Source: Methanomicrobia archaeon | GTDB taxonomy: Archaea > Halobacteriota > Bog-38 > Methanoflorentales > Methanoflorentaceae | Assembly (NCBI GenBank): GCA_015660915.1 | Contig: JACTTZ010000006.1 | Span: forward strand, 16,370 to 80,369 | Reading direction: 5' to 3' | DNA: 64,000 bases | In this document: in pieces, positions 10,282 to 57,611 of the stretch | Layout of the letters: each line of letters opens with the position of its first letter | How positions within the stretch are numbered: position 1 is the first letter of the stretch | Program-made: the position numbers and the translations under genes | Notes under the pieces: generated by a model | Database searches by the model: none | What the model saw: only the letters and a program-made list of their open reading frames with translations | Told to the model about the DNA's origin: nothing

Positions 10282-10536
10282 ACTCCGACATGGAAGAAGA
10301 TGTATCACTACTTTGAGTATCGAAATGCTGAGTTCTTGGAGCACTACCACAAACGGAGCAATGCCGAAACGACGTTCCATATGACAAAGAGCAAGTTTGG
10401 GCACGCGGCGAGAAGCAAGACCGAAGTGGTGCAGGTTAATGAGGTGTTGCTAAAAGTGTTTTATCACAACATCTGTGTGGTGATTCAACAGATGTGGGGG
10501 TTGGGGATAGAGCCGAATTTCTTCGGCTCGAGCTAA
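10282..10536 (+). pseudogene. C-terminal remnant of the SWIM-DDE transposase
   Basis: PTWKKMYHYF...YHKRSNAETTFHM..SKFG is nearly identical to the transposases at 44-45 kb and 52-53 kb; in-frame stop at 10279. Confidence 0.88.
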
Positions 10537-10614
10537 GGTAGGTTCTTGAACAATAACTTTTTGTATTTTCATTTGGCATTAATGCAGCGCTAAAACAATA
10601 GATAAAGCAGACAA

Positions 10615-11655
10615 ATGGAAGAATCAGAACCAATGGTAGAATTAGCCGGAGAATCTAGCGAATTAGACGCGTCGGAATGGTGGAGCTCTCATTTCGACTT
10701 CAACCTTTACAACCTGGAGAGAAAAGGTGATAAGTACTATCTTAAGTCGCCTCGATTCGTAAAAAAAAGGGATAGCAAAGCAATACGGGAAGAGGATAAG
10801 AGCAAAGCAATATGGGAAGAAGCTAAAAACCTGCTTCCGGTAATTAAAGCCATTTCAAAAATACGAGGTTTGGGCGGCCAATCTATGAAGATTGGTAGCG
10901 AAGTTCGTAAAGAATGGGGAAGACCAGCTGACGTTATCGTGGAGGGGGGACGGCCACACTTATTCATTTTTGGAGAATTGCTGTCTGGCAGAGGGAGATT
11001 TTGGAAGGAAGATGGCATAATCTATTTTAGAGGGCATGAAACAGGGCGGGTTGTAAACGAACACGACCAGATTATGCAGGAATTTATGCGGGATTTCGGA
11101 AACAACATACCGGATTTCGCTCTTAACATACCGCAACTTGAATTTTTAGTGCAGCAGGCACGGCAGCTCGATAGCGACCTCAATCTACTTGAAAAATGCG
11201 TCGATGACCCATATGTATACGAGACGTTTTCCTATTTTGCAGGGGAGCCAAATTGGCTCAACCTCTGGAAGACTTATGAAATGATTAAATATTGTGTCGA
11301 TAGAAACTTGGGTCATACATTTACGCGCGAAAAATGCGCGATAATAGACAATGGTTGGGCAGAAGAGCTAGAATTAGTGAATTTTGCGAACAGCGCAAAT
11401 TACTATTTAGCGCAAGGAGACCCTCGTCACTCTCGCGCATATTATCTTAATAAAGAAAGGGAGACAGAAGAAAAGTTAAATCCTGCTCAGAAACAAAGTC
11501 ATAGAGAGCGAAAGGCGAGGCGCGAGGCCGCTAACCCACCAATGAGTCTGCCTATGGCAGAAGAGCTCATCATACGAATCTTTCGACGATGGTGTAGATG
11601 GAGAGTCACCAATATGTGTTTGGAGAGCTACCAGCACGTGATAGTCACCGTTTAA
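10615..11655 (+). CDS. Hypothetical cargo protein (possibly HEPN-like C-terminus)
   Basis: 346-aa AT-richer ORF; WLNLWKTYE..GW..F.NSAN..GDPRH..PMSL pattern. Confidence 0.6.
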   Translation: MEESEPMVELAGESSELDASEWWSSHFDFNLYNLERKGDKYYLKSPRFVKKRDSKAIREEDKSKAIWEEAKNLLPVIKAISKIRGLGGQSMKIGSEVRKEWGRPADVIVEGGRPHLFIFGELLSGRGRFWKEDGIIYFRGHETGRVVNEHDQIMQEFMRDFGNNIPDFALNIPQLEFLVQQARQLDSDLNLLEKCVDDPYVYETFSYFAGEPNWLNLWKTYEMIKYCVDRNLGHTFTREKCAIIDNGWAEELELVNFANSANYYLAQGDPRHSRAYYLNKERETEEKLNPAQKQSHRERKARREAANPPMSLPMAEELIIRIFRRWCRWRVTNMCLESYQHVIVTV

Positions 11656-11662
11656 CGCGAGT

Positions 11663-11932
11663 CTACCTCATTTCAACTTTAAGGTGCGCTCTCCGCACCA
11701 TCGCAGTCGTTTCCTCATCATCTAAAAGGTTTGGGAAATCCGCGGAATAATATTCCATATCAAAGCAGAAAAGCAACCCCATAAGCACCTCACGATCGGT
11801 GAGCGATACCGTAAGGTTGTAGTTAGTGAAACTGTATTCTGAAATTCCTTTTGCCTCTTCCCATTCTTTTCCCATCCACTCGTCTAGTTCAATACAAAGT
11901 TTCTTAGCTTCGTTATCTTTGTTTCGTGTCAA
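11663..11932 (-). CDS. Hypothetical cargo protein
   Basis: 89-aa ORF, TTG start with AGGTGA RBS. Confidence 0.55.
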   Translation of the reverse strand: MTRNKDNEAKKLCIELDEWMGKEWEEAKGISEYSFTNYNLTVSLTDREVLMGLLFCFDMEYYSADFPNLLDDEETTAMVRRAHLKVEMR

Positions 11933-12022
11933 AAAATCACCTCAAAAAAGTGTTGCAACAGTCGGGACTTTGTTGCAGAAGTAGGCGAGAGACTGGGGTT
12001 TTGCAACAAAGCCCCTGATTGA

Positions 12023-12108
12023 GGCTTTGTTGAAGAAGTGCTCGTGAAGCGCTACTTTTTCAACAGACGACTGACTTTTTCAACACGTGGCAGTTATTCA
12101 ACAAAGCC
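12023..12108 (-). mobile_element. 86-bp non-autonomous mini-element (MITE) of the same family
   Basis: TIRs GGCTTTGTTGAAGAAGT / GGCTTTGTTGAATAACT, two internal TGTTGAAAAAGT repeats, flanked by CCTGATTGA at 12014-12022 and 12109-12117. Confidence 0.92.
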
Positions 12109-12120
12109 CCTGATTGACCA

Positions 12121-12132
12121 ACTTTTATATAG
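12121..12132 (+). promoter_or_regulatory. TATA box of the heat-shock operon
   Basis: ACTTTTATATAG upstream of the HSR operator and the ATG at 12196. Confidence 0.75.
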
Positions 12133-12195: not shown

Positions 12196-12849
12196 ATGGA
12201 CGAAGCAGCACTCCTTGACATTCTCGGCAATGAAAATCGCCGCAATATCTTGAAACTCCTTTCACTGCGGCCTTTTTACGTGACTGAGATTTCAGAACGA
12301 CTGCACGTGGCCCCGAAGGCGGTGATCAGTCATCTCGGCATGCTCGAGCGGGCAGGGATTATCCAGTTCTTTGTCGATGAGCGACGCCGGAAGTACTTCC
12401 ACATCGCGGATAACTTGCTGCTCGAGATTCAAATCTCGCCGTTTAGCTACGGAGTCGAATCCGCTAATGATGCACGCGACGAACCAACCGTTGCCGAGTT
12501 TCCAACTCCGATTGGCGAAATACAAATCAAAACGAACAGTTTGGCCGACGTTGCGGAGACACTCGACAGCCTAAGGAGGGCTAATCGCGAGCTGATGGGG
12601 GCGCAGCGAAGGGTCCAAGAGTTGATCAATGAGGTCATGGAGCGCGGCGCAAGAAAGATTGACGCAATATCGCGCGACTTTGTTGAATATGACATCCTTT
12701 CGTTGCTGCTTACAGGGCCCAAGACGGCCAATCAGCTGTCTGCGGGGCTCGCGATACCTGGCCAAATACTCGTAGAGCGGCTGCGTAACCTTGAAAAACG
12801 AGGGAAAATCAAAAGAATGGACGCCAGAACGTATTGGCTGGCGAGGTAA
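12196..12849 (+). CDS. ArsR-family heat-shock regulator (HSR1-like)
   Basis: LLDILGNENRRNILKLL..RPFYVTEIS..PKAVISHL; synteny with cdc48 and hsp20. Confidence 0.85.
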   Translation: MDEAALLDILGNENRRNILKLLSLRPFYVTEISERLHVAPKAVISHLGMLERAGIIQFFVDERRRKYFHIADNLLLEIQISPFSYGVESANDARDEPTVAEFPTPIGEIQIKTNSLADVAETLDSLRRANRELMGAQRRVQELINEVMERGARKIDAISRDFVEYDILSLLLTGPKTANQLSAGLAIPGQILVERLRNLEKRGKIKRMDARTYWLAR

Positions 12850-18611: not shown

Positions 18612-19024
18612 ATCCTCCTGGTTGCGTAGTAGATGCCAACCATGAGCGCCACTGCGATAATTCCGACTATTGCTGCACCTATCAGTGTGGGATCGGCACC
18701 GCCACCTCCCGTTTGATTCGCTGAAGCCGTCGGGATTACTGTCAGCGATGGCGTCGCACTTGCCGTTGGCGATGGCGTCGCACTTGCCGTTGGCGATGGT
18801 GTCGCACTTGGCGATGGCGTCGCACTTGCCGTTGGCGATGGCGTCGCACTTGCCGTTGGCGATGGCGTCGCACTTGCCGTTGGCGATGGTGTCACACTTG
18901 CTAGAGCGGTTTGTTGTCCCTGCGAACAAAGCACTGTTGACGAAGCTATCGTCATAGAAATGAGCAAAAACAGCACTATAACGCGTGAGATGTGAATTCT
19001 AGGCCCCCCTGTGCTTAATGACAC
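18608..19024 (-). CDS. Surface/membrane protein with Thr/Pro/Ser-rich linker
   Basis: Signal peptide, (TPSPTASA)n repeats, C-terminal TM anchor. Confidence 0.7.
   Translation of the reverse strand: MSLSTGGPRIHISRVIVLFLLISMTIASSTVLCSQGQQTALASVTPSPTASATPSPTASATPSPTASATPSPSATPSPTASATPSPTASATPSLTVIPTASANQTGGGGADPTLIGAAIVGIIAVALMVGIYYATRRI
18745..18901. repeat. 24-bp coding tandem repeat (about 6 units)
   Basis: GCGATGGCGTCGCACTTGCCGTTG repeated, one unit shortened; encodes TPSPTASA on the minus strand. Confidence 0.9.
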
Positions 19025-39112: not shown

Positions 39113-39173
39113 GCCAGATTAAAGAAGAAAAAGATGCTATTTTTTTAATAGACTCCGTCTCAGCGAGGCGGAG
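39113..39173. repeat. Dispersed ~60-bp repeat ending in a GC hairpin, copy 1
   Basis: GCCAGATTAAAGAAGAAAAAG...CTCCGTCTCAGCGAGGCGGAG; second copy at 57549-57611. Confidence 0.8.
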
Positions 39174-41934: not shown

Positions 41935-42942
41935 ATGGGGGCACAAACGGTGGACGAGAGCGCGGAGACGAAAGCTTTTCTTATTGCAGAGGGAGGTGTG
42001 GATATTGATGAGCGTATACTTGGGCGCATTACAACCCCTGCTTCGGGCCCGGGTGCCGGCCTCACGTCGTTCTTTTTGCTATTTAACGGTCACCGTGTGC
42101 GCTTGGGCATAAAACACGGTTCTCGGCTTAAGGCATCGCTTGAAGGGAATGAAGTAGTTATCCGCGACCACGAAAAAGAGATCGTTCGCGGATCTCTCGA
42201 AGATGCCATCGCTCATTGCCCCGGACAAGCGTACATCACCGTAAGCGAGGTATGCATATTCGACTGCCAGTACTGCCCAGTGCCGCTTCTTAGAGGTTCG
42301 GTAAAGAGCCAGAGTGATGTTGAGATGGCGATTTCGCGAATTCTTGCCGATCCAACCCTCGCAAGCAAGCTAAAGGCTATCGCATTAACCTCCGGTGTCG
42401 AAAAGTCAGCGCAACACGAAGCCGAGCGGATCGCAGCTATCGTTCACACCCTGAGAGAGAAATACGATCTGCCGATCGGCGTATCCGTTTATCCAACACC
42501 AAATTCAACTAAGTTGTTGAAAGATGCCGGAGCTGACGAAATTAAGTACAACGTCGAAACAATGGATCGTCAACTCTTTGAGCAGATGTGCCCTGGGCTC
42601 TCACTCGACTTCATTTTGAAGGCTCTAAAAGACGCAGTAGAGATTTTCGGCCGAAACAAAGTGTTTTCCAATATCCTCGTTGGCTTGGGAGAGGATGATC
42701 TCTCAATTATCAACGGCATGTGCGAACTGATCAAAATAGGTGTGATACCTATACTAAGAGCCGTTGTTGAGCATCCTTTGCGAGCAGAGACGGGCATGCG
42801 ACGACCTGATGCAGAGCGCCTTTTGCGACTAGCGCGAAAAGAGCGTAAACTCCTCGACAAGTATGGCCTGCGAGCTGACATAGCAAAGACGATGTGCGCC
42901 CCGTGCACAGGCTGTGATCTGATGCCTCACCGGGACGTTTAA
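41935..42942 (+). CDS. Radical SAM protein (archaeal biotin-synthase-related)
   Basis: CIFDCQYC, AHCPGQA, C-terminal CAPCTGCD. Confidence 0.82.
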   Translation: MGAQTVDESAETKAFLIAEGGVDIDERILGRITTPASGPGAGLTSFFLLFNGHRVRLGIKHGSRLKASLEGNEVVIRDHEKEIVRGSLEDAIAHCPGQAYITVSEVCIFDCQYCPVPLLRGSVKSQSDVEMAISRILADPTLASKLKAIALTSGVEKSAQHEAERIAAIVHTLREKYDLPIGVSVYPTPNSTKLLKDAGADEIKYNVETMDRQLFEQMCPGLSLDFILKALKDAVEIFGRNKVFSNILVGLGEDDLSIINGMCELIKIGVIPILRAVVEHPLRAETGMRRPDAERLLRLARKERKLLDKYGLRADIAKTMCAPCTGCDLMPHRDV

Positions 42943-43395
42943 CACCGGCTGGTGTGCATATTTTTTGCGTCGTTTCGCAGTGACAAATCCCGCATAAGCG
43001 GCTGACAAGATTCGACTTTTTTCCGCTGAGGCTTTTTTTTGATGATTTGCGATTGTGGTTGTTATCCACTGACGCCAGAGAATCGGTCTGTCTAGGTCTT
43101 ACGCAGTACTAACGTCGCGCGGCCCCTAAAGAAGCCCTTGAAAAGATGCTTGGGACGGGTGTATAGCGCCGCAATAACTCTTAGGCTTTGTTGCATAACC
43201 CCCGTCTGTTGCAAAAGTAAAGGTTGTGTTGCAAAAGTCTACGCGGGTTGGGGTTCTGTTAAACCAAACGTTGTTAATCCTAGGTTGTTGAGAAAAGGTT
43301 GGCGGAAAATTGTTTTTCTGTAACAATTGCACGTTACATAGGATTATGTTATCGCAATATGGGATAACTTGCATTGTATTTGTAGAGGGAGTAAT

Positions 43396-44184
43396 ATGAC
43401 GCTAAGTATCATTATTAGAAGCCCAGATGGCATTGTACTCGCCACTGAAAGCAGAAGTTTGACGGAAGTGACTTTGCCAAACGGTTCGAAATGCCCAATT
43501 AGCTTTGATGAAACCAAGAAACTCCTAACGTTTGACGAACCCCACAACTTTGTAGCTGCTGTCACGACCGGGCTTGGAGGAATAGGGAATAGGTCTGTTT
43601 ATAATTTCGTACCAGATTTTGAAGCAACAATCGCTTCAGAAGGTCGTATGCCGGTTGACGAGTTCTCCGAAAAAATGTCCAACTTCTTCATGAAGGAATG
43701 GGAGAGGCGGCCACCAGAAATGAAAGACTGGAAAGGCCCGTCGATATCTTTTCTCGCGGCGGGTTTCAACGAAGGGGATGCATATCCTCACACTTACAAA
43801 ATAGATATTCCTTCTGAACCGAAACCCGTTGAATTGCCCCAGATAGACATAACTTGGGGAGGTGAAGGAGAGCTAGTCAACAGACTGATAAAAGGTTATG
43901 ACCCCAACCTTCCAAAACGATTGTCAGACGCTTGGTCGTTAACTGAAGAACAAGTGAAAGCTATGCCAGAAATCGCGCAACCGCTTTCTCTACAGTTCCC
44001 GTTGCCAGTGATGGGATTGCAAGGCTACATTGACTTAGCGGTATTGCTTCTCCGCACCACGATAGAAACTCAGCGACTAGCACTCTACGTAAGGGGGTGT
44101 GGCGGCCCTATCGACATGGCTACAATAACGCGAGGAGACGGGCTTTGCTTCGTTCGACTTAATGACGAAGACGAGATTTGCTAA
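43396..44184 (+). CDS. Proteasome-beta-like Ntn hydrolase (cargo)
   Basis: M-T-LSIIIRSPDGIVLATESR start, K at 'ETKKL', FLAAGF, GGPIDMATIT. Confidence 0.7.
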   Translation: MTLSIIIRSPDGIVLATESRSLTEVTLPNGSKCPISFDETKKLLTFDEPHNFVAAVTTGLGGIGNRSVYNFVPDFEATIASEGRMPVDEFSEKMSNFFMKEWERRPPEMKDWKGPSISFLAAGFNEGDAYPHTYKIDIPSEPKPVELPQIDITWGGEGELVNRLIKGYDPNLPKRLSDAWSLTEEQVKAMPEIAQPLSLQFPLPVMGLQGYIDLAVLLLRTTIETQRLALYVRGCGGPIDMATITRGDGLCFVRLNDEDEIC

Positions 44185-44369
44185 CTGCGGAGACTAAAAA
44201 ATTGTCCTGAGGTACCGTGTTTCGGCCCTTCAGTTTGCGAGCGAACGCGCTTTATATATTCCTCAATTGCTTTGTAGTCGCTTTCCGTAATTTCTTCGCC
44301 GTCTAAGAAGTATTTGTCAACGCTCTTTTTCTCAAGCACGTGGGTGCTATTTTCTATCTTACTTTCCAT
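44181..44369 (-). CDS. Small hypothetical protein divergent from the transposase
   Basis: 62-aa ORF. Confidence 0.45.
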   Translation of the reverse strand: MESKIENSTHVLEKKSVDKYFLDGEEITESDYKAIEEYIKRVRSQTEGPKHGTSGQFFSLRS

Positions 44370-44383
44370 TCTAAATTAACCGA

Positions 44384-45678
44384 TTGCTAGGTAAACGTTT
44401 AATCGGACGTACGACGATTATCAGTTCTTTGTCGCGTATTTCTAGCTGCCAATCTAATGAATCATCACTCGTCAGGTTCAAAGCTCGGAAGGAAAGGGGT
44501 TTGAGCATAGCAAAGACCTGCAAAATCACCAAGAGCGGCAACAGTTGGATAGTTCCCTCTCAGTCAAACGGAACCACATACGACGTAGAATTCTCAGAAT
44601 TTGACCATAAACAGTCTTGCACTTGCCCTGATTACCAATACCGGAAAATCAAGTGCAAGCATATCTTCGCGGTTGTGTTAATCGTCACTGAAGAGATTGA
44701 CAGCTACGGAACGGTCACGCAGACTGTTACAAAGCGGGTAAGCTACGCGCAGAATTGGCAAGCCTACGACCAAGCGCAAATACACCAGAAAGAGCTTTTT
44801 ATGGGCTTGCTCCGAGACTTAACAAGTTCTATTCCGCAGCCGGAGTACACGTTTGGAAGGCCGAAGTTGCCATTAGCCGATATGGTGTTTGCGTCTGCTT
44901 TGAAGGTCTTCTCAACCTTTTCGCTAAGGCGGTTTACCACTGACATGCAAATAGCAAAGGAGAGAGGTTTGATTGAGAGAGTGCCCTACTACACGACTGT
45001 TGCGCGGTATATGGAGAATTCAGAGCTAACACCCATCATCAAAGACCTTATCGCCATGACAAGCCTCGCTTTAGCCTCAGTTGAAAACGACTTCACTATT
45101 GACAGCTCAGGATTCGGAACTTCGAGGTTTGTCAAGTGGTTCGACCACAAATACGGCAAAGACAAAGACGTTAGGACGTGGGTAAAAGCGCACGTAGCTT
45201 GCGGGGTTAAGACAAACATCGTTACTGCTGTCGAGTTGACAATGGGTAACGAGCATGATTCAAAGTTTCTGCCGGAACTGGTGACTCAGACAGCTCAGAA
45301 CTTTACGTCAAAGAAGTGTCCGGAGATAAGGCGTATTCTTCGAGAGCCAATTTAGAATTGATAAACGAGCTGGGCGCTGTGCCTTACATCCCATTTAAAA
45401 AGGGAACCACAGGCCGAGCGAAGAACGCGCCAACGTGGAAGAAGATGTATCACTACTTCGAATTCAGAAACGAGGAATTCCTAGAGCACTACCACAAGCG
45501 GAGCAATGCAGAGACGACGTTTCATATGATAAAGAGCAAGTCTGGGGATTCAGTACGCAGTAAGACGGAAGTGGCTCAGGCTAATGAAGTCTTACTGAAA
45601 GTGCTGTGCCACAACATCTGCGTGGTAATACAGGAGATGTTTGAGTTGGGCATTGAACCCAACTTTTTTTCTTCTTAA
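44384..45678 (+). pseudogene. SWIM-DDE transposase with a 1-nt frameshift near 45305
   Basis: CTCPDY..CKHI SWIM, IDSSGF, GDKAY, YHKRSNAE. Reads CTTTACGTC where the intact copy has CTTTAACGTC. Start uncertain. Confidence 0.88.
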
Positions 45679-45756
45679 GGGTGGGTGTTTGGTTCGGCAG
45701 CCAGAGCTTTTTGTAAGAGCACTGTTAATAACCACTCTTCTGGAAGGCGATAACCT

Positions 45757-46038
45757 ATGAATCAGAGCGAGCTGTTTAAAGAAGTTCTTGAGAATATTAG
45801 GAAAGAGATTAAATCCCAAAATGATGAGATAATAAAAATCGCAGAGCGTGTTGGAGATAAAGAGAGAAAGAAGATAGGAGACCGTATTAGCATCGACAGC
45901 GACATCGCTGACGGCTTCAAGAACATCGTTTCCAACATCGACCGGCTAGAACAGATGATAAGCGCGGTAAACCAGAGAGTTTTTGAGGTAAACCAGAGAG
46001 TTACTGAATTGGCGAAGCATACTTACCCCTATGTATGA
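45757..46038 (+). CDS. Small coiled-coil cargo protein
   Basis: 93-aa heptad-rich ORF. Confidence 0.6.
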   Translation: MNQSELFKEVLENIRKEIKSQNDEIIKIAERVGDKERKKIGDRISIDSDIADGFKNIVSNIDRLEQMISAVNQRVFEVNQRVTELAKHTYPYV

Positions 46039-46102
46039 GTGTGTTACACGTTTGTGGTTGTGACGGTAAGAACCTAACCAGAAATTTGGGGGGGGTGAGG
46101 AA

Positions 46103-46264
46103 TTGGTCAATGAAGATGAATTTAAGGTATTAGAAAACCGTGTGGAAGAGCTTGAAAGACTTTTTGAAGAACTCCATCAGCAAATGACACCCGATAAGAT
46201 AGGAAAATTGGTTGAGAAATACGTGAAAGAATATGCTAAGCTTCCAGAAGGAGCTAGGAGTTAA
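46103..46264 (+). CDS. 53-aa coiled-coil cargo protein (below the ORF-track cutoff)
   Basis: GGTGAGG RBS, TTG start; MVNEDEFKVLENRVEELERLFEELHQQ...GARS. Confidence 0.55.
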   Translation: MVNEDEFKVLENRVEELERLFEELHQQMTPDKIGKLVEKYVKEYAKLPEGARS

Positions 46265-46402
46265 CGAGTCGTATACGCTTATTATTTTCTGCTTTACTCC
46301 TTAACTTAACGAATCTTTGTTACCAACCGATTCACCTCAGCCACTTTTCACCGATTCAGCAACCGCAGATTCAGCACTAGTTTCGAGTGGGTTCACTGGA
46401 GA

Positions 46403-46490
46403 TTCAACAAAGCCGCAACAAAAGATGTTTGAGTTGGGGATTGAGCCGAGTTTCTTTGGTCTTACGCCCGCTTTGAATGCCGACTTGTAA
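46403..46490 (+). pseudogene. Orphan TIR plus the last 21 codons of another transposase copy
   Basis: TTCAACAAAGCC at 46403-46414, then MFELGIEPSFFGLTPALNADL*. Confidence 0.75.
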
Positions 46491-46554
46491 GCAAGACTAC
46501 CGAAAGATATTTTTCTTTTCACATATTATATTATAAAACAGGGACGTGGCGACG

Positions 46555-46845
46555 ATGGCAGGTATAATCAATAGTCGTGGCAATTCTTTTACTGGTGGTG
46601 ACGATTATTTTCAAGGTGGCAATGCATCTGTAAATGGCAACTATTTTTCGGCAAGAGACGATGTTATTCTTGTGGATTCCTCCGCCTTAACAGCCTGCGC
46701 CTTACCTACCTTTATAAGAAGCGGAGAAACTCTACCTCCAGAAATACTCCCGGATGTAAGTAAAGAGAAGCCACTACTCTTCGAAATAGATATCATACGT
46801 GTTGTTTCGGCTGAGCCGTTAATAGACCAAATAAAACGACGTTGA
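46555..46845 (+). CDS. Hypothetical cargo protein
   Basis: Low-complexity ~96-aa ORF immediately upstream of the next gene. Confidence 0.5.
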   Translation: MAGIINSRGNSFTGGDDYFQGGNASVNGNYFSARDDVILVDSSALTACALPTFIRSGETLPPEILPDVSKEKPLLFEIDIIRVVSAEPLIDQIKRR

Positions 46846-46865
46846 AGGCGTTTAGATGGGTAATA

Positions 46866-47630
46866 ATGGTTAATATTGACCCTTGCGACGCCTGCGACGC
46901 AAAAGACAAGTGTTCAGCAGTTTTTGATGAAATTGACAATACTAAGGAAATTGAACAGGGCGACATACTCCTTTTGCCTTATATTTATCCTATAGGACGT
47001 ATCGAATTTGCAGAAGATAAGCCCGAGGGTAAGCTCAAAGCATGGATACAAAAATGGAATGCTGTGGTGCTAAGTCACTCTAGCACTTTGGCACAAAACA
47101 AGTTAGACCTCGTGCTTCTCTGTCCTATATGGGGGGTAAGCAGTTTCTATGCAAATCGCGTCGAGCGGCTTAAACTAGATGATGAATATGCCAAAAAAAT
47201 TTTTAAAGACGGTAAATTTGATAGAGAAAACTTCAAAAATAAAACAGATAGTCTACTTAGTGAAGCGACTATAGGTACTCAATATGGTTACAGTATTCTA
47301 AAAAAGACACCTCCGTGCGACAAATATCAAAAAGGCTTAGCTCCGATGCTTGTTGATTTTACTAATGCTTATTCACTTCCTGTAGATTTAATAAAGCGTT
47401 ACGTAGAAAAATCTCAAGACAAGCCTAAGAGGCTTAGGTTGACATGCGAGTATAGAATTGATTTGGTAAGCAGGTTCAACTATTTCTTGCAAAGGACTGT
47501 GGCGCCAAGAGATGAACTTAGTTTTCCAGATATGAAGCAAAATGACATTGATTATCCACGAATAGATACGATGCTCGATAAAGTGGCTGAGGCTTCAGAA
47601 AAAAAAGAAAAGAAAACGGGTGAAAGCTGA
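46866..47630 (+). CDS. Hypothetical cargo protein, possible PemK/MazF-like fold
   Basis: QGDI...AVVLSHS..L...VLLCPI...LVDF...RL.L...YR..L..RF..F..R pattern. Confidence 0.55.
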   Translation: MVNIDPCDACDAKDKCSAVFDEIDNTKEIEQGDILLLPYIYPIGRIEFAEDKPEGKLKAWIQKWNAVVLSHSSTLAQNKLDLVLLCPIWGVSSFYANRVERLKLDDEYAKKIFKDGKFDRENFKNKTDSLLSEATIGTQYGYSILKKTPPCDKYQKGLAPMLVDFTNAYSLPVDLIKRYVEKSQDKPKRLRLTCEYRIDLVSRFNYFLQRTVAPRDELSFPDMKQNDIDYPRIDTMLDKVAEASEKKEKKTGES

Positions 47631-47652
47631 CCGTCTAATCAAAACAATGACG

Positions 47653-48174
47653 TCAAACAGGTGGATATCTTTTGACGACGCTTTGATGATTGACTAGATA
47701 AATAGGCTCTCCCTGTACGTCATTATGGTCAACTTTTGCAATTGCTTGAGCAACGGTTTGCACAGATAACTTGATGCCTTCTACTTCGTATTCATTCCAC
47801 GGTTCTTTCACAGGTGTAAACTCCAAGGCGTTTTCTTTAAGTAACAATTCAATCTGAGACGGTTCTGACGGAAGTCGAGCATTGGACGGGTTCCCTCTTA
47901 ATCCAGAAGGTGAAAATGAAGCCATTATAGGTATAGTAGTTGCAGTATAATTGCCGTCTATCTTAAAGAATTTTAGCGGCTTAACAAGAAGCTTTATTAC
48001 TGTTTCATCATTGAGACAGTAAACGCTGCACTCTTCCTTTATCCGTTCAAAATCTAAATAACCATATTCTTTAATTTTGTCTTTAACGGTATCAATACTA
48101 GTCATCGGGGTCACCCGTTCAGCGATGTATAAATGTCTATCATTTGAGAAAGTTGTTTTGGTTGCACTACTCAT
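47653..48174 (-). CDS. Hypothetical cargo protein with an internally duplicated domain
   Basis: LDFERIKEECSVYCL and LEFTPVKEPWNEYEV repeats; alternative start at 48105. Confidence 0.6.
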   Translation of the reverse strand: MSSATKTTFSNDRHLYIAERVTPMTSIDTVKDKIKEYGYLDFERIKEECSVYCLNDETVIKLLVKPLKFFKIDGNYTATTIPIMASFSPSGLRGNPSNARLPSEPSQIELLLKENALEFTPVKEPWNEYEVEGIKLSVQTVAQAIAKVDHNDVQGEPIYLVNHQSVVKRYPPV

Positions 48175-48380
48175 GTTTTTTCACCTGTAAAGGCTCCACT
48201 CTTGGGGAAAAAGGCGCGTGTTGCAAAACACCCTTCTGTTGCAAAAGTCGGGGTTGTGTTGCATAAGTGCCTGAGAAATGCGGCGAAATGTGAGTTTTGC
48301 AACAAAGCCTAACTCTTAGGCTTTGTAAAATAAGTGCCGTTTGTTAAAAAAGTCAAGTTTCTGTTAAAAAAGTCAGTGTT

Positions 48381-48695
48381 CTATTTTCGCACCGCTGCGT
48401 TGAGGCCCGACTCGACTTGGTCAATGGTCGTATTGCACAATAACACCACTTTCCTAGTGCTTGTATGCCCTGAAATGAGTTGCACCTCGTCCACAGGCTT
48501 GTCGAACAAAATCGCAAGGTATCTCATGAGCTGTTCGTTTGCTTTTCCTTTTTGTGCTGGCTCAGTGAGTTTGATACGGACGGCATGCCGCCATGCGTTG
48601 AATCCTTCGATGCCTGAATTTCGTGAACTTGGCGCTACTTCTATGCGAATCGTCACGCCTTCTGGTACGGCCCTCAGTGCGCCTTCAAGCTGCAT
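48381..48695 (-). CDS. DUF167 (YggU/UPF0235) protein
   Basis: IEVAPSS, PAQKGKAN, ISGHTSTRK. Confidence 0.85.
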   Translation of the reverse strand: MQLEGALRAVPEGVTIRIEVAPSSRNSGIEGFNAWRHAVRIKLTEPAQKGKANEQLMRYLAILFDKPVDEVQLISGHTSTRKVVLLCNTTIDQVESGLNAAVRK

Positions 48696-49077
48696 AAACG
48701 GGATGAAAAGATAGAAATTTTGGTCTTTGCCCCGACGCACTAACTCCGAAGGTTCATTCTCTTGAAATCTTCGCTGTCCCCTTCAGTTACCCTCGTGCCG
48801 GGGCATGATGCGACCTTTGCCATTACGGGGTTGTTTTGCTATCATCGAAGGGCGTTCGCCAAGAACTCAAACAAAGACCTATACGTAACGGGATACTTTG
48901 GCTCCTATATGCACTGATAATCATCCAAACACGCACGTGACACGTTATACCAGTCCTCTTAAGAGCGTTATTTTGTATATTGGGGATGCTATATATCGTT
49001 TTTGTTTGAGTCACACAGCTAAGGTCATTTCAATGCACTTTTATATTTAATATGCTTAGCCTCAATGTCTGATATTT

Positions 49078-49524
49078 ATGGCTTACTGGCTCTATGTTAC
49101 GAATTTTGACAACTGGAACGTCACGAAAGAGACAAATATTTTAGGAGTTTCCGAAAAGTTCGGAAAGATCCTTTCTCGTGTAAAGAAAGGTGATAAGTGC
49201 TTAATTTATCTAAAGACCGAAACAGTGAGCAGAGAGCGTTATCCTCCACAGGTGGCTGGGGCATATCAGATTGTGTCAGAAGTATTCAAAGACAGCAAAG
49301 TGATGTTCCACGCACCCTACGCTACTTCCAATGAGACATACGGTCTAAGAGTAAGGCTAGAACCTTTGCGGCTATTCGAGCTTCCCATTGAGTTTAAGCC
49401 GCTCGTTTTGAGATTGGCATTTATTACAAACAAGGCAAAATGGTTTTTGAATCTTAGAGGACGAGCAATGGTCGCGATTCCGAAAAGTGATTACGACTTG
49501 ATCCTTTCTGCTGCTCATCATTAA
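49078..49524 (+). CDS. EVE-domain protein
   Basis: MAYWL..NW..VKKGDKCLIY, LAFITNK.KW, M..I.K.DY.LI. Confidence 0.85.
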   Translation: MAYWLYVTNFDNWNVTKETNILGVSEKFGKILSRVKKGDKCLIYLKTETVSRERYPPQVAGAYQIVSEVFKDSKVMFHAPYATSNETYGLRVRLEPLRLFELPIEFKPLVLRLAFITNKAKWFLNLRGRAMVAIPKSDYDLILSAAHH

Positions 49525-49605
49525 ACGGATTATTCAAGGTCAGTTTCGGCTAGGATTCGTAAAATCCATATAGTAAGAACTCATATTACCAGATGGACTG
49601 ATTTT

Positions 49606-52086
49606 ATGAATGATTATTCATCTGAAGATGATGTCAAATATAAGTTTGCGGTTTCCTTTCTCGAAAAAAAAGGCTATTCAACAGATTTTATGGATTTTAA
49701 CAAATCTATAAAAGTTCAAGAAGGCCGCAAAGAAAAGACGATTTTTGCTGATATTGTCGTTTACATCGATAAGAAGAAACAATCTCCTATCATTCTTGTT
49801 GAGACAAAATCTCCAAATGAAATTTTGAATAAAGCCGCAGTTGAGCAGGCAATATCATATGCGCGGTTATTGCCAAGAATTGCACCCTTCGCCCTTTTAA
49901 CAAATTCCAGCCAGACGCGCATTTACCAAGTTGTTGACAAAAACAGAATTGAAGAACTACCAACCAAAGCAGATTCGCGTAAGGATATTGTAACGTCAGT
50001 TATCAGCAAAGCCACTCAGGACTCGCTTAGGCAAGATGCAATTCACGAGCTGTTTGTAATTGATGATGTAAAGACCTTCAGAAATGTGCTAAAACAATGC
50101 CACAACGAAATTCGGAATAATGAAGGCTATGATCCAATTCAAGCTTTTGATGAAATGAGTAAAATTCTCTTCTGCAAGATGTATGAAGAGAAATATGATA
50201 ATGACAACCGATTTACCTTGCGGGTTTTTGACAGGACAATCAATACCTACCGCTTCAATATCATCCAGAAGATATACGAAGAAACAATTAAGCACCCTAA
50301 ATATGCTTCGCTTTTCCCGGAAAATGATAAAATAAAACTCAAAGATCGAACCATAAGGAGGATAGTCAAATTATTTGAACACTATGACCTATCACTTACA
50401 GCGTTTGACATAAAAGGAGAAGCATTTGAATACTTTTTGAGCGACACATTCACAGGTGGATTGGGGGAATATTTCACACCGAGAAACGTTGTTGAATTTA
50501 TTGTAGATGCTATAGACCCTAAAATAGCGGAAAAGATTGTAGACCCTTTTTGCGGAACAGGTGGATTTCTGATTTACGCATTTGATGTCGTGCACCAGAA
50601 AATCCGACTTCAAGATTTTTCTGAAGATGAAAGACAGAAGTGGCAAGAAGCACTGTCAAGTAGATCTTTATTTGGAACCGATTGGAAAGAAAGGACAATT
50701 CAAGCCTGTAAGATGAATATGATTGTTCACGGAGATGGACATACGGGGATATTCTTGCACGATGGTCTAACGAATATCAAAGAGACGGTTCAAGAGAATT
50801 CCTTTGACGTATGTTTAACAAATCCCCCGTTTGGAGCCGTTGAGAATAACAAAGAGGTCTTGGATAATTATCACTTTGGCAAAGGAAGGGAGTCACAGGA
50901 AAGGGAGATCTTGGCCCTCGAAAGAGCGATTCAATTAATAAAACCAGAGCGTAAGTGTGGAATGGTAGTGATTGAAGGAATTTTGAACAATGACAAATAC
51001 AAACCCGTTAGAGACTATGTAAAACAAAAGGTATGGATAGATGGAATTGTAAGCCTACCATCAGACACGTTTTCTGGTTATGGTTCAAAAGCGGCTACCT
51101 CTTTGTTTTTCTTCACTAAAAAAACAGAGCCTGATGAAGGAGAGCAAAAAAGCATCTTCATGGCAATTTGTAACAATTCAGGCTATTCAGCATCAGGACT
51201 AGAGATTCCCGGAAACCAATTGCCAGACATCTTGGTTCAATATAAAAAATTCTTAAAGAATCCGGCAGACGCAACGATTTCTGGTAGTAATGTCGCAGTT
51301 GTCTCAACGGATGATTTGCGAGACCGTTTTGACCCGCAACACTATATTTCGCAAGTGGAGAGCAAAATATCTACCAGCGCCGAGGTCATAAAGACTCAAG
51401 AGCAACTGAAACAGCATTTCAAGAATGTCCAAGCGGATAGTGACTCACTTGTCGACTCCCAATTAACCAAAATAGCAGATATTGGTGAATGGGATATTGT
51501 TAAAATAACAAAGCTTGTCGATGAATATAAAGCTCCTGAAAAATTAGAGCCTAATACTGATTACGCTCTGGTGGGAGTTAGAGGACACGCGCTAGGCGCT
51601 TTTATTAAAGATACTAAAAAAGGAAGTGAAATCAAAGCCAAAAAACTATACAAAACTAAGCCGGGATGTTTGATCTATAACAGGCTGTTTGCGCATCGTG
51701 GGTCGTTCGCAATTCTGGACGACTCTTTTGAGAACTGTTATGTTTCTGGAGAATTCCCACAATTTATAGCTAAGGAGCAAACAAAATACGAACCCGCTAA
51801 CCTAATTAAATATTTGTTTTATTATTGTATAAATCCGGTTTTTGTGGATAATGTCAGACGATATTCTTCCGGCTCGACCAAAGGAAGCCGGTTTAGGTTA
51901 AAAGAAGATTCGTTTTTGGATTTCAAAATTAAAATACCAGCAAGCTCACAGAATTTGAATGCGTTAGTAAATAAACTAGATGACCTTTTTTCGACAACTA
52001 AGAAAATTAAAGAAACACAAATGATGCTTGACTCGGAGATGGAACAACTAAAAGAAAGAATCGTTATGACTCTCCCCCAATCTTAA
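49606..52086 (+). CDS. Single-chain restriction-modification enzyme (HsdR-N-like nuclease + N6-adenine MTase + TRD)
   Basis: ADIVV..LVETK nuclease motif, GEYFTPR, DPFCGTGGFL, TNPPFG, HsdS-like C-terminus. Confidence 0.88.
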   Translation: MNDYSSEDDVKYKFAVSFLEKKGYSTDFMDFNKSIKVQEGRKEKTIFADIVVYIDKKKQSPIILVETKSPNEILNKAAVEQAISYARLLPRIAPFALLTNSSQTRIYQVVDKNRIEELPTKADSRKDIVTSVISKATQDSLRQDAIHELFVIDDVKTFRNVLKQCHNEIRNNEGYDPIQAFDEMSKILFCKMYEEKYDNDNRFTLRVFDRTINTYRFNIIQKIYEETIKHPKYASLFPENDKIKLKDRTIRRIVKLFEHYDLSLTAFDIKGEAFEYFLSDTFTGGLGEYFTPRNVVEFIVDAIDPKIAEKIVDPFCGTGGFLIYAFDVVHQKIRLQDFSEDERQKWQEALSSRSLFGTDWKERTIQACKMNMIVHGDGHTGIFLHDGLTNIKETVQENSFDVCLTNPPFGAVENNKEVLDNYHFGKGRESQEREILALERAIQLIKPERKCGMVVIEGILNNDKYKPVRDYVKQKVWIDGIVSLPSDTFSGYGSKAATSLFFFTKKTEPDEGEQKSIFMAICNNSGYSASGLEIPGNQLPDILVQYKKFLKNPADATISGSNVAVVSTDDLRDRFDPQHYISQVESKISTSAEVIKTQEQLKQHFKNVQADSDSLVDSQLTKIADIGEWDIVKITKLVDEYKAPEKLEPNTDYALVGVRGHALGAFIKDTKKGSEIKAKKLYKTKPGCLIYNRLFAHRGSFAILDDSFENCYVSGEFPQFIAKEQTKYEPANLIKYLFYYCINPVFVDNVRRYSSGSTKGSRFRLKEDSFLDFKIKIPASSQNLNALVNKLDDLFSTTKKIKETQMMLDSEMEQLKERIVMTLPQS

Positions 52087-52210
52087 TTTTTTTGATTGTT
52101 ACTTCGATATAATCTCCTTTCTGTAATCCCTCGTCTTCCCACGCTTTTTTATCGATTACAATACGTCTTTGCTTGTCATTCTTAACTTGCACAATAAATG
52201 GTTTTGACAT
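52064..52210 (-). CDS. 48-aa AbrB/MazE-type DNA-binding protein (not in ORF track)
   Basis: MSKPFIVQVKNDKQRRIVIDKKAWEDEGLQKGDYIEVTIKK; GGTGA RBS; divergent from the transposase. Confidence 0.7.
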   Translation of the reverse strand: MSKPFIVQVKNDKQRRIVIDKKAWEDEGLQKGDYIEVTIKKIKIGGES

Positions 52211-52270
52211 ATTCACCATATATGTCTTCTTCACCACAAACTATTTATTCTTTCCGACCTATTATTATTG

Positions 52271-52284
52271 TGGTGAATTCACCA
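52271..52284. promoter_or_regulatory. Palindromic operator candidate TGGTGAATTCACCA
   Basis: Perfect 14-bp palindrome just upstream of the transposase ATG; further TTCACCA half-sites at 52212 and 52230. Confidence 0.55.
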
Positions 52285-52298
52285 TAGACGTGACAATC

Positions 52299-53537
52299 AT
52301 GCAAGCTCAAGAATTGTTGGAAGCTCGGAAGGAACGAGGCACGGAAATAGCACATAACAACCACATCAAAAAGAGCGAGAAGGGGTGGCTAGTCCATTCT
52401 CAAACGAGCGATGCATCTTACATCGTTCAGTTCTCAGAGTTTGACCACACACATTCATGCGATTGTCCTGATTACCAATACCGGAAAATCAAGTGCAAAC
52501 ACATCTTCGCGGTTGAACTCATTGTTACCGAAGAGATCGACGAGCTAGGTAAGGTCACACAGACTGTCACAAAGAAGGTCAGCTACACACAGGATTGGCA
52601 AGCCTACGACCACGCTCAGATACACCAAAAGGAACTGTTCATGCAACTGCTTCAAGACGTATGCCGCCGTGTGCCACAGCCTGAATACACATTCGGAAGA
52701 CCGAAGCTGCCGCTATCTGATATGGTGTTCCTATCAGCCCTCAAGGTGTTTAGCACCTTCTCATTAAGACGGTTCTTGACAGATGCAGAGATAGCAAAAG
52801 AACGCGGCTACATCGAGAACGTGCCGACGTATGTTTCTGTTGCTCACTATATGGAGAATCCAGACGTAACGCCTATTATCAAGGAGCTTATCACGGTAAC
52901 GAGTCTTCCGCTAACGTCTGTCGAAACAGATTTCACGATAGACAGCTCAGGATTTGGAACCTCAAGGTTTGTTAAGTGGTTCGACCACAAATACGGTAAG
53001 GAAGTTGATACAAGGGCGTGGGTTAAAGCTCACCTCATATGCGGAGTGAAGACGAACATTGTGACGGCGGTTGAACTGACGATGACAAACGAACACGATA
53101 CGAAATTCCTACCTGAACTGGTGTTTCAGACGGCTCAGAACTTTAACGTCAAGGAAGTTTCGGGGGACAAGGCGTATTCGTCAAGGAAGAACTTACAGCT
53201 CATTGGCGACTTGGGAGCTACGCCCTATATTCCTTTTAGAAAGGGAACGACAGGACTCTCTAAGGGCTCAACGATGTGGAAGAAGATGTACCACTACTTC
53301 GAATTCAAAAACGAAGAATTTTTAGAGCATTACCACAAGCGGAGCAACGCAGAAACCACTTTTCATATGATAAAGAGTAAGTTCGGGGATTCGGTGCGGA
53401 GTAAGACAGAGGTTGCTCAGGTCAATGAAGTGCTGTTGAAAGTGTTGTGTCACAACATCTGCGTTGTGATTCAAGAGATGTTCGAGCTCGGACTCGATAT
53501 TAGTTCGTTGTTTCCTATAGGAAATAAGCTAACTTAG
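52299..53537 (+). CDS. Transposase: N-terminal SWIM zinc finger + IS4/IS5-type DDE domain
   Basis: CDCPDY..CKHI; D (IDSSG), D (GDKAY), E in the YREK-type motif Y-HK-R-SNA-E-TTFHMI-K. Confidence 0.92.
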   Translation: MQAQELLEARKERGTEIAHNNHIKKSEKGWLVHSQTSDASYIVQFSEFDHTHSCDCPDYQYRKIKCKHIFAVELIVTEEIDELGKVTQTVTKKVSYTQDWQAYDHAQIHQKELFMQLLQDVCRRVPQPEYTFGRPKLPLSDMVFLSALKVFSTFSLRRFLTDAEIAKERGYIENVPTYVSVAHYMENPDVTPIIKELITVTSLPLTSVETDFTIDSSGFGTSRFVKWFDHKYGKEVDTRAWVKAHLICGVKTNIVTAVELTMTNEHDTKFLPELVFQTAQNFNVKEVSGDKAYSSRKNLQLIGDLGATPYIPFRKGTTGLSKGSTMWKKMYHYFEFKNEEFLEHYHKRSNAETTFHMIKSKFGDSVRSKTEVAQVNEVLLKVLCHNICVVIQEMFELGLDISSLFPIGNKLT

Positions 53538-53662
53538 GTTAACGTCAACCGCGGTTAACGTTATGCTCTTCGAGAGCCGTTCTTAGCTTCATTTGAGTGT
53601 TTCCATTGGAAACTGTTAAGTGCACTTAACGTTAAGCGCGCTTGACCTTAACCGCGGTTAAG
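53528..53662. repeat. Five 16-bp palindromic units (2+3 in tandem)
   Basis: GCTAACTTAGGTTAAC, GTCAACCGCGGTTAAC; GTTAAGTGCACTTAAC, GTTAAGCGCGCTTGAC, CTTAACCGCGGTTAAG. Confidence 0.8.
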
Positions 53663-53786
53663 ATGTCAATGAATAGCATGGTTAGTTTTGGGTTCTCTTT
53701 TTTTGAAAATCTCTTGTTAAAAAAGTAAGACGTTTGTTAAAAAAGTGGGTTCAATTTCTGACTTTATTTACAAAGCCTAACTCTTA

Positions 53787-53801
53787 GAAAATATTATATA
53801 T
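53787..53801 (+). promoter_or_regulatory. BRE/TATA box of the downstream HTH gene
   Basis: GAAAAT-ATTATATA about 27 bp before the ATG at 53827. Confidence 0.7.
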
Positions 53802-53826
53802 TATTAACGGCGTTAATTTGGTTGAT

Positions 53827-57548: not shown

Positions 57549-57611
57549 GCCAGATTAAAGAAGAAAAAGCTGATATTTTTCTAATAAACTCTCCGCCTCG
57601 CTGAGACGGAG
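57549..57611. repeat. Dispersed ~60-bp repeat, copy 2 (hairpin inverted)
   Basis: Same leader as 39113; the hairpin is the exact reverse complement of copy 1. Confidence 0.8.

Follow-up and report, generated by a model that had tools for sequence, protein, structure and literature searches.

The window, a 64,000-nucleotide stretch analysed as a whole, belongs to the 2.04-Mb draft assembly of an archaeal genome (27 contigs). NrpR, glutamine synthetase, and Cdc48 are encoded in the window, which also harbors (i) a truncated transposon, element A, (ii) an 86-bp mini-element, M1, directly beside it, and (iii) two long elements, B and C, lying head to tail (Table 1). M1 has 86 bp and, together with two perfect 9-bp copies of CCTGATTGA, spans 12014-12117. 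It is bounded by an inverted pair of GGCTTTGTTGAA tips, and its left arm, read on the minus strand, consists of 23 nt, namely the tip GGCTT, the core TGTTGAATAACT, and 6 nt.

Table 1. Mobile elements, their parts, and neighboring landmarks in the window
Feature	Position	Strand	Details
Element A remnant	10285..12013	(+)	left part missing; transposase C-end fragment 10285-10523 (last ~80 codons); 12-mers at 11951 and 11971; tip 12004-12013; last 12-mer 42 bp from the tip at 12013
M1	12023..12108	(-)	86-bp MITE; "left" end at 12108; tips GGCTTTGT at 12023 (+) and 12108 (-), 12-mers, and duplication; parts: tip plus core 23 nt, 12-mer, 8 nt, 12-mer, 31 nt with inverted core and tip
M1, left copy of 9-bp duplication	12014..12022		CCTGATTGA; also the flank of element A's right tip
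M1, right tip core	12028..12039	(+)	TGTTGAAGAAGT; inverted relative to the other three sites
M1, second subterminal 12-mer	12054..12065	(-)	TGTTGAAAAAGT; 42 bp from the tip at 12023
M1, first subterminal 12-mer	12074..12085	(-)	TGTTGAAAAAGT
M1, left tip core	12092..12103	(-)	TGTTGAATAACT
M1, right copy of 9-bp duplication	12109..12117		CCTGATTGA
TATA-box-like landmark	12124..12131	(+)	TTTATATA; 6 nt beyond the duplication, ~65 nt before the ATG at 12196 of an ArsR-type ORF
Element B	43184..48309	(+)	5126 bp; flanked by TAACTCTTA; left core 43189; 12-mers TGTTGCAAAAGT at 43207, 43227, 48237, and 48257; right tip 48309, last 12-mer 52 bp away
Element C	48319..53777	(+)	5459 bp; flanked by TAACTCTTA; adjoins B via a 9-bp spacer; left core 48324; 12-mers TGTTAAAAAAGT at 48342, 48362, 53715, and 53735; right tip 53777, last 12-mer 42 bp away
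Transposase ORF of element C	52173..53537	(+)	DDE_Tnp_1 + SWIM; NF033579
Abutting ends	12006-12030, 48302-48326		also at L146, L158, L169, L175, L182, L191, L204, L206, L222, L230, L234, L238

The patterns that define these elements are far more frequent in the window than chance predicts. The tip pattern has 9 matches versus 0.51 expected, a number that none of 100 shuffles reaches, and the 12-mer pattern has 16 matches versus 2.36 expected, the largest count among 100 shuffles being 6. Fourteen of the 16 matches to the 12-mer lie inside the elements.

M1 is non-coding and has terminal inverted repeats and a duplication like that of the long elements, which are traits of type I MITEs. The copy number is low, with one copy each of two mini types in its own genome and three minis in the related genome G002, and does not show the multi-copy habit of MITEs. 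A reading of M1 as an RNA gene was rejected: no Rfam family reaches its gathering score, the matches found there are just sub-threshold chance matches to miRNAs, and the DNA fold amounts to the terminal repeat alone (z -2.55).

Element A retains two ORFs without Pfam or NCBIfam matches, and its truncation is also present in the related genome G008. In element B, the transposase frame is broken (44384-45678). The 52 bp at its right end reflect a 10-bp difference from the relative in G008 (L026), which has a third 12-mer there. The stretch 48205-48309 of this end forms a near-complete, left-end-like module with a core, two 12-mers, and 41 nt to the tip. Within B, at 46405-46457, a tip-like CAACAAAGCC precedes a repeated copy of the transposase gene's final ~13 codons, which points to a nested remnant or an earlier rearrangement. 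The gene to the left of B (42200-43123) has a second copy, 85% identical, on another contig of this genome (G000:C18:95038-95956). A third complete element of the genome, on contig C4, measures 3540 bp and is flanked by GACGTGAGT.

The cargo of element C (48381-52086) comprises a DUF167 gene on the minus strand, a gene for an EVE-domain protein, and one for an 826-aa fusion in which an HSDR_N-like part, an N6-adenine methyltransferase, and a specificity domain are joined. This cargo is a restriction-modification-like passenger, in which no nuclease partner was seen.

The window also holds repeats of other kinds. Region 18699-18924 is a tandem array in which a 24-nt unit (GCGATGGCGTCGCACTTGCCGTTG-like) recurs at least seven times, one of the steps being 18 nt. 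A 43-nt direct repeat, 91% identical between 39113-39173 and 57549-57611, is followed in each copy by one arm of a perfect 21-nt inverted repeat, CTCCGTCTCAGCGAGGCGGAG.

The Transposase and the Element Ends

The transposase of these elements couples an IS5-type DDE enzyme (PF01609, E 8e-23) with an additional N-terminal SWIM zinc finger. It scores 142.6 bits against the NCBIfam IS5 model NF033579, just above the cut-off of 140. In element C, the gene is intact, and the protein probably starts at the ATG at 52299. The C4 gene is intact and encodes 407 aa; recoding was considered for it and discarded, the in-frame TAG codons lying upstream of the real start.

Several features link the elements to the IS903 group. 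Their tips begin GGCTTTGTTG, as do the terminal repeats of that group, and a 9-bp duplication flanks all five complete elements of the own genome. Together with the loci collected elsewhere, 60 distinct exact 9-bp duplications are on record. By tblastn, the transposase is ~26% identical over residues 131-447 to transposases of the plasmid-borne ISSpu20/ISAba12 family (E 5e-15). The SWIM-bearing transposase of ~410 aa, the larger size (smallest long forms 1664-1676 bp), and ends built of 12-mer arrays led to filing the family as a distant relative of IS903 rather than in the IS903 group proper, whose elements are ~1.05 kb long and have one transposase of ~300 aa and simple ends. Judged from sequence, the long elements are distant, enlarged, cargo-carrying relatives of that group. 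Searches of the open literature by sequence and by keyword led to IS903B, the ISAba12 group, and MITEAba12, but to no account of the archaeal family or its 12-mer arrays. The parent family, with its same-direction 12-mer arrays, 20-bp size ladder, SWIM transposase, and cargo, is apparently undescribed.

The ends are organized around an oriented 12-mer, TGTnnnAnAAGT, which copies the inner part of the terminal repeat. A left end carries the tip core and two more copies, all in one direction, at offsets 5, 23, and 43. A right end has a pair of copies with that same orientation, which ends 31 nt short of the tip, and then the tip core in inverted form. The original prediction had placed a core and, at +18 and +38, two 12-mers at the left ends of B and C, with the same spacing in M1 on the minus strand, and these coordinates hold, the core of M1 lying at 12103. 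Its account of the right ends, with direct 12-mers 20 bp apart and the last one 42 bp from the tip in A, C, and M1 and 52 bp in B, is likewise correct.

This layout is not confined to the window. A scan of one genome per species (185,579 species) for the left-end pattern only, i.e., the tip and two 12-mers in an element of any size, returned 108 stretches with 109 left ends. As named in their records, the hosts are archaea from Methanoperedens, Methanosarcinales, Thermoplasmatales, Hadarchaeota, Nitrososphaerota, and the Bathy-, Woese-, Aenigm-, Micr-, and Nanoarchaeota, and some bacteria (Dehalococcoidia and Acidobacteria). Both ends are present in 18 long elements; 10 of these carry, counted from the right tip, one 12-mer at exactly -63 and another at exactly -43, pointing in the left-end direction, and three more have a single 12-mer at -43; the remainder are shifted by a base or decayed. 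A third 12-mer occurs at 3 of the 109 left ends, which are probably the three 106-bp minis described below.

Tip cores and 12-mers co-vary. They match at 3.05 of 4 free positions on average, compared with 1.86 when permuted (maximum 2.14 in 2000 permutations), and at least 10 types exist at positions 4-6. This co-variation suggests that both are recognized by a single DNA-binding surface. The transposase of IS903 binds the inner part of its terminal repeat, and the 12-mers are putative transposase-binding sites.

Sizes and Origin of the Mini-Elements

The sizes of the minis form a ladder: 66, 86, and 106 bp fit 23+12n+8(n-1)+31 for n = 1, 2, and 3. A scan of metagenome contigs that required a tip, one 12-mer, and a right tip and allowed 63-93 bp found 82 minis, 39 of 66 bp and 36 of 86 bp, while the other seven are singles at 65, 68, 71, 74, 84, 85, and 92 bp. 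A duplication with at most one mismatch accompanies 30 of the 66-bp and 22 of the 86-bp minis. Because metagenome copies include the same locus from several samples, sequence clusters are given as well, which number 35 for 66 bp and 27 for 86 bp. The pattern asked for one 12-mer only, yet each of the 28 distinct 86-mers has a second one at +20. Variable sizes and breakpoints unrelated to the repeats would have told against the original prediction; instead, 75 of the 82 minis measure exactly 66 or 86 bp. Its view of 86 bp as the minimal unit has to be dropped, as the 66-bp class with one 12-mer is equally common.

The scan anchored on left ends found a partner for 32 of the 109. Short forms measure 86 bp (11 cases), 106 bp with three 12-mers (three cases), 148 bp (two cases, non-collapsed and both in one Blastocatellia genome), 610, 696, and 848 bp; uncertain ones, lacking a duplication, possibly 108 and 213 bp; and 13 long forms 1664-5247 bp. 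All such counts refer to minis with an intact left tip and at least one 12-mer or, in the tip-only scans, with exact 8-base tips, minis otherwise built being invisible.

The own genome was searched blind to internal structure, for tip pairs with at most one mismatch and a 9-bp duplication at most 8 kb apart. Of eight candidates, three lack family cores, and the five real ones are B, C, and the C4 element (5126, 5459, and 3540 bp) together with a pair of minis, one of 86 bp and the other of 84 bp. The latter is of the C type, lies on contig C18, and is flanked by the duplication GATTTTGGG. Across 24 genomes of the own family, minis of 85, 86, 86, 86, and 87 bp and a decayed 86-bp copy were found, and family minis in these genomes are solely 84-87 bp long. 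Tip-only scans of the same 24 genomes gave one 64-bp match without 12-mers between 40 and 70 bp and none between 102 and 163 bp. A tip-only scan of the phylum (401 genomes, 71-101 bp) gave 13 places, of which five, all of 85-87 bp, have family 12-mers; the eight without 12-mers are in line with the control pattern's five.

A mini can be described as a long element minus everything between its left and right 12-mer pairs, in register. The original prediction had made this case by joining the ends of element C, and the arithmetic is exact: 55 bases (48319-48373) plus 31 (53747-53777) give 86 bp, the size of M1. The description extends family-wide, to minis of 66, 86, and 106 bp with multiple origins. 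Element C itself is not the source of M1. The four sites of M1 carry TGTTGA, while those of A and B carry TGTTGC and those of C carry TGT(T)AA, so that M1 does not derive from any of the three. A search of the genome for further 86-bp units and a long parent, as suggested by the original prediction, gave a second mini (84 bp, C type) and no long element of the TGTTGA type. A left end of that type, from an element of more than 373 bp, is present in the related genome G021, and a decayed 86-bp copy of M1's type in G002.

The preferred reading, to which a probability of about 70% is assigned, is that M1 is a type I MITE, a non-coding derivative of an archaeal, SWIM-bearing relative of IS903/ISAba12 that arose by homology-guided deletion between the 12-mer arrays and has been moved in trans. 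The left and right 12-mer pairs would act as direct repeats with a 20-bp period, and a deletion guided by their homology would remove transposase and cargo, leaving tip-23-[12-mer array]-31-tip. Joining in register would give 86 bp, and a shift by one period would give 66 or 106 bp. The product would keep every site that the transposase needs and could be moved in trans with 9-bp duplications. Three routes can be envisaged: (i) strand annealing during gap repair after excision, which would be independent of the distance between the arrays, (ii) replication slippage, and (iii) recombination with release of a circle. All three fit equally well. The identity between the arrays is 12-13 nt uninterrupted, twice, with 26 of 32 positions identical in C. 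A deletion of the homology type, in register, is strongly implied, and deletions would form preferentially through pairing of the two arrays.

The size ladder could also be the work of selection only: deletions with random ends would occur, only products that hold a 12-mer at distances of 23 and 31 nt from the left and right tips, respectively, would be mobilised, and amplification would leave 66, 86, and 106 bp. Near-perfect duplications mark 52 of the 75 minis of 66 and 86 bp as transposed copies, and the 31-nt and 23-nt spacings are also conserved in the long elements, which argues for a functional geometry. Long elements, however, work with kilobases between the two modules, and filler should therefore be tolerated; yet minis with both modules and filler are rare (148 bp twice in one genome, 610, 696, and 848 bp) against more than 90 collapsed ones. 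Random ends that fall in register within 12-mers are, moreover, a tiny share of possible deletions, and the collapse recurred at least six times. As the sole cause, selection is thus rather unlikely. Selection for a working geometry surely contributes and, given that all duplication-bearing copies have transposed, could sharpen the size classes without any deletion bias, but it cannot alone explain the rarity of filler-bearing minis, as long elements tolerate kilobases at that position.

Evidence for recurrence comes from a tree built on the first 55 and last 31 bases of 15 minis and 17 long elements. Three rows were omitted, namely the 148-bp element and, because their right arms are out of register, B and the 84-bp mini. 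The alignments are very short, with 74-86 columns, protein-binding positions among them. In the tree, minis and long elements are intermingled, with at least 11 changes between the two labels, six of them forced by starred branches. Placing the minis in one clade costs 87 log-likelihood units and is rejected (AU p 1.4e-5); without the 12 specificity columns, resolution is poor, with one starred branch only, and AU p is 0.003. The mini L070 (G002) is 84% identical to the long element L019 (G022), and the mini L067 (G017) 83% identical to element C, each over 86 positions, and both are closer to their long partners than to any other mini. These two pairs show the identity beyond the terminal repeats that ties a MITE to its parent; for M1 itself, the only such counterpart is the left end of the same type in G021. 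The minis do not form one clade, and the collapse has therefore occurred several times. One ancestral 86-bp mini that spread horizontally, with its four sites co-evolving with each transposase lineage, would account for the minis that cluster together (L057/L096/L114, L034/L063, L079/L121). The rejection of mini monophyly under both column sets tells against such a single origin, the nearest neighbor of several minis is a long element from their own host group, and four sites in a non-coding passenger would need concerted change. A single old origin is thus very improbable.

The direction of change may in principle be the reverse, the mini being primitive and a gene block having entered its 12-mer array and duplicated the array to yield the long elements. 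The right 86-97 bp of B (48205-48309) resemble a near-complete mini minus a clean tip, as this scenario would have it. Such a right end, however, occurs in B alone among the long elements inspected by eye, the bacterial IS903/ISAba12 elements are autonomous and have the same tip, and duplication of an array upon insertion is without known mechanism. The probability of this scenario is accordingly slight.

No pair of full and collapsed alleles was found in situ at the orthologous sites of B and C, which relatives do not conserve. Of 17 same-genus genomes, 16 retain the left flank of B, and similarity ends ~60 bp before the insertion; downstream of C, the region is not conserved, and family ends are absent there. 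The 12-mer spacers of minis, compared with the left and right spacers of the nearest long elements to locate the crossover, gave ties or too few matches to place it.

Insertion Sites

M1 adjoins the right tip of element A, and the spacer between them is exactly the 9 bp that flank the other side of M1. In G017 (L031), a C-type 86-bp mini occupies the same 9 bp in the opposite orientation, and in G008 (L026), an A-like long end lies at the site of M1. These arrangements point to the M1 site as an insertion hot spot. Upstream of the ArsR-type gene, these same 9 bp are thus occupied by elements that differ among three related genomes and a metagenome contig. The contig, L232, matches the window at 85% on the left side.

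At L232:4849-4934, a hybrid 86-bp mini with a perfect duplication sits at the site orthologous to that of M1 and in the same orientation. Its left 55 nt resemble the left end of element C (50/55) and its right 31 nt those of M1 (25/31, the last 20 identical), which indicates that arms can be exchanged across the 12-mer region; it is the sole hint of the cargo exchange that the original prediction considered. The cores at the two tips agree with each other in 56 of 77 minis and in 15 of 18 long elements; as a clear excess of hybrids among minis is absent, the claim is limited to the existence of hybrids such as L232.

Abutting ends of different elements were collected from 3.6 Mb of scanned sequence. 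The spacer is 9 bp in 16 distinct cases and 0 bp in one, and no spacers of 1-8 or 10-40 bp were found in these 3.6 Mb. Wherever both sides are visible, the spacer equals the outer duplication, i.e., the same 9 bp have been re-used.

The 60 sites with exact duplications share sequence preferences on either side. T stands at position -4 in 36 of the 60 and at -3 in as many, and A stands at each of +9 to +12 in 29-36 of them, in partial agreement with the IS903 target motif WTTYA-N9-TRAAW given in Table 1 of PMC2577343. T is found at +17 in 48 of the 60. A TTTAWA/TWTAAA hexamer starts 6 or 8 nt outside the duplication in 23 right and 15 left flanks, and it lies within offsets 4-15 on at least one side of 34 of the 60 sites, compared with 5 of 120 flanks at control offsets 34-45. 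Within the window, the hexamer is seen at the insertion sites 12109-12131, as TTTATATA (12124-12131), and 53778-53805. TTTAWA was also considered as a pseudo-end for the transposase and set aside: the flank does not change with the 12-mer type of the element, in a list judged by eye.

The hexamer resembles an archaeal BRE/TATA element, and promoter-proximal targeting is possible. A target set in part by a landmark outside the duplication, and regenerated by that duplication, would explain both the hot spot and the tandem arrays. The newer element would then be the one on the TATA side, so that M1 would have followed A and C followed B. A bolder and rather doubtful extension holds that the same-direction arrays are a built-in joint that makes these transposons modular: lineages would keep shedding minis of 66, 86, and 106 bp, elements would stack head to tail at promoter-proximal hot spots, and neighbors would fuse or swap arms and cargo, maybe catalysed by array-bound transposase rather than by host recombination.

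Relation to Known Systems

The likeness to IS903 lies in the tip, the 9-bp duplication, and the IS5-type DDE transposase. The differences from the IS903 group are (i) a transposase only ~26% identical, with an extra N-terminal part that holds the SWIM finger, and (ii) subterminal 12-mer arrays and cargo genes, neither of which is known from IS903. The IRL/IRR of IS903B start GGCTTTGTTGAATAAATC (PMC10569121), and the left tip of M1 has the first 15 bases of that sequence in common. The elements of the ISAba12 group measure ~1.03-1.05 kb and make 9-bp duplications (PMC6382973), while the smallest long forms here measure ~1.66 kb.

The same paper describes MITEAba12, which has the tip GGCTTTGTTGCA and 9-bp duplications, is moved by co-resident IS5-family elements, and has a very narrow size range, 90% being 113 bp. 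The first 12 bases of that tip are as in elements B and C4. In that text, the identity between MITEAba12 and the insertion sequences is in terminal repeats only, and the authors could not deduce its origin (PMC6382973). The length of 113 bp contrasts with 66, 86, and 106 bp here, where the whole mini is accounted for by the two ends of a long element. MITEAba12 is the nearest described cousin of M1.

MITE origins are usually argued from terminal repeats alone. In the present family, the ends of the parents account for the mini from its first base to its last, and one size rule holds across many archaeal phyla and a few bacteria. MITE birth thereby becomes directly testable through junctions inside the 12-mers. 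The family itself is a widespread, apparently undescribed IS903-like branch with a SWIM finger, methyltransferase/EVE cargo, and asymmetric ends. If confirmed, the insertion preference would be a rare case of archaeal promoter-proximal targeting, with a fixed distance from TATA-like hexamers and re-use of the 9 bp leading to tandem arrays.

Ds derivatives of Ac and the deletions in P elements have their classic origin in deletions bounded by short direct repeats. The present type I MITEs differ in that the role of the direct repeats falls to 12-mers that belong to the element itself, form arrays, resemble binding sites, and have one orientation at the two ends. Product sizes therefore come in steps of 20 bp, and such products have arisen again and again in many phyla. 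Tn7 and Mu have several transposase sites in each end, and more than one copy of the recognition motif per end is present in the IR/DR structure of Sleeping Beauty (PMC5224488). In Sleeping Beauty, Tn7, and Mu, the extra sites are mirrored between the ends, whereas the right ends of the elements described here have subterminal sites with the orientation of those at the left ends.
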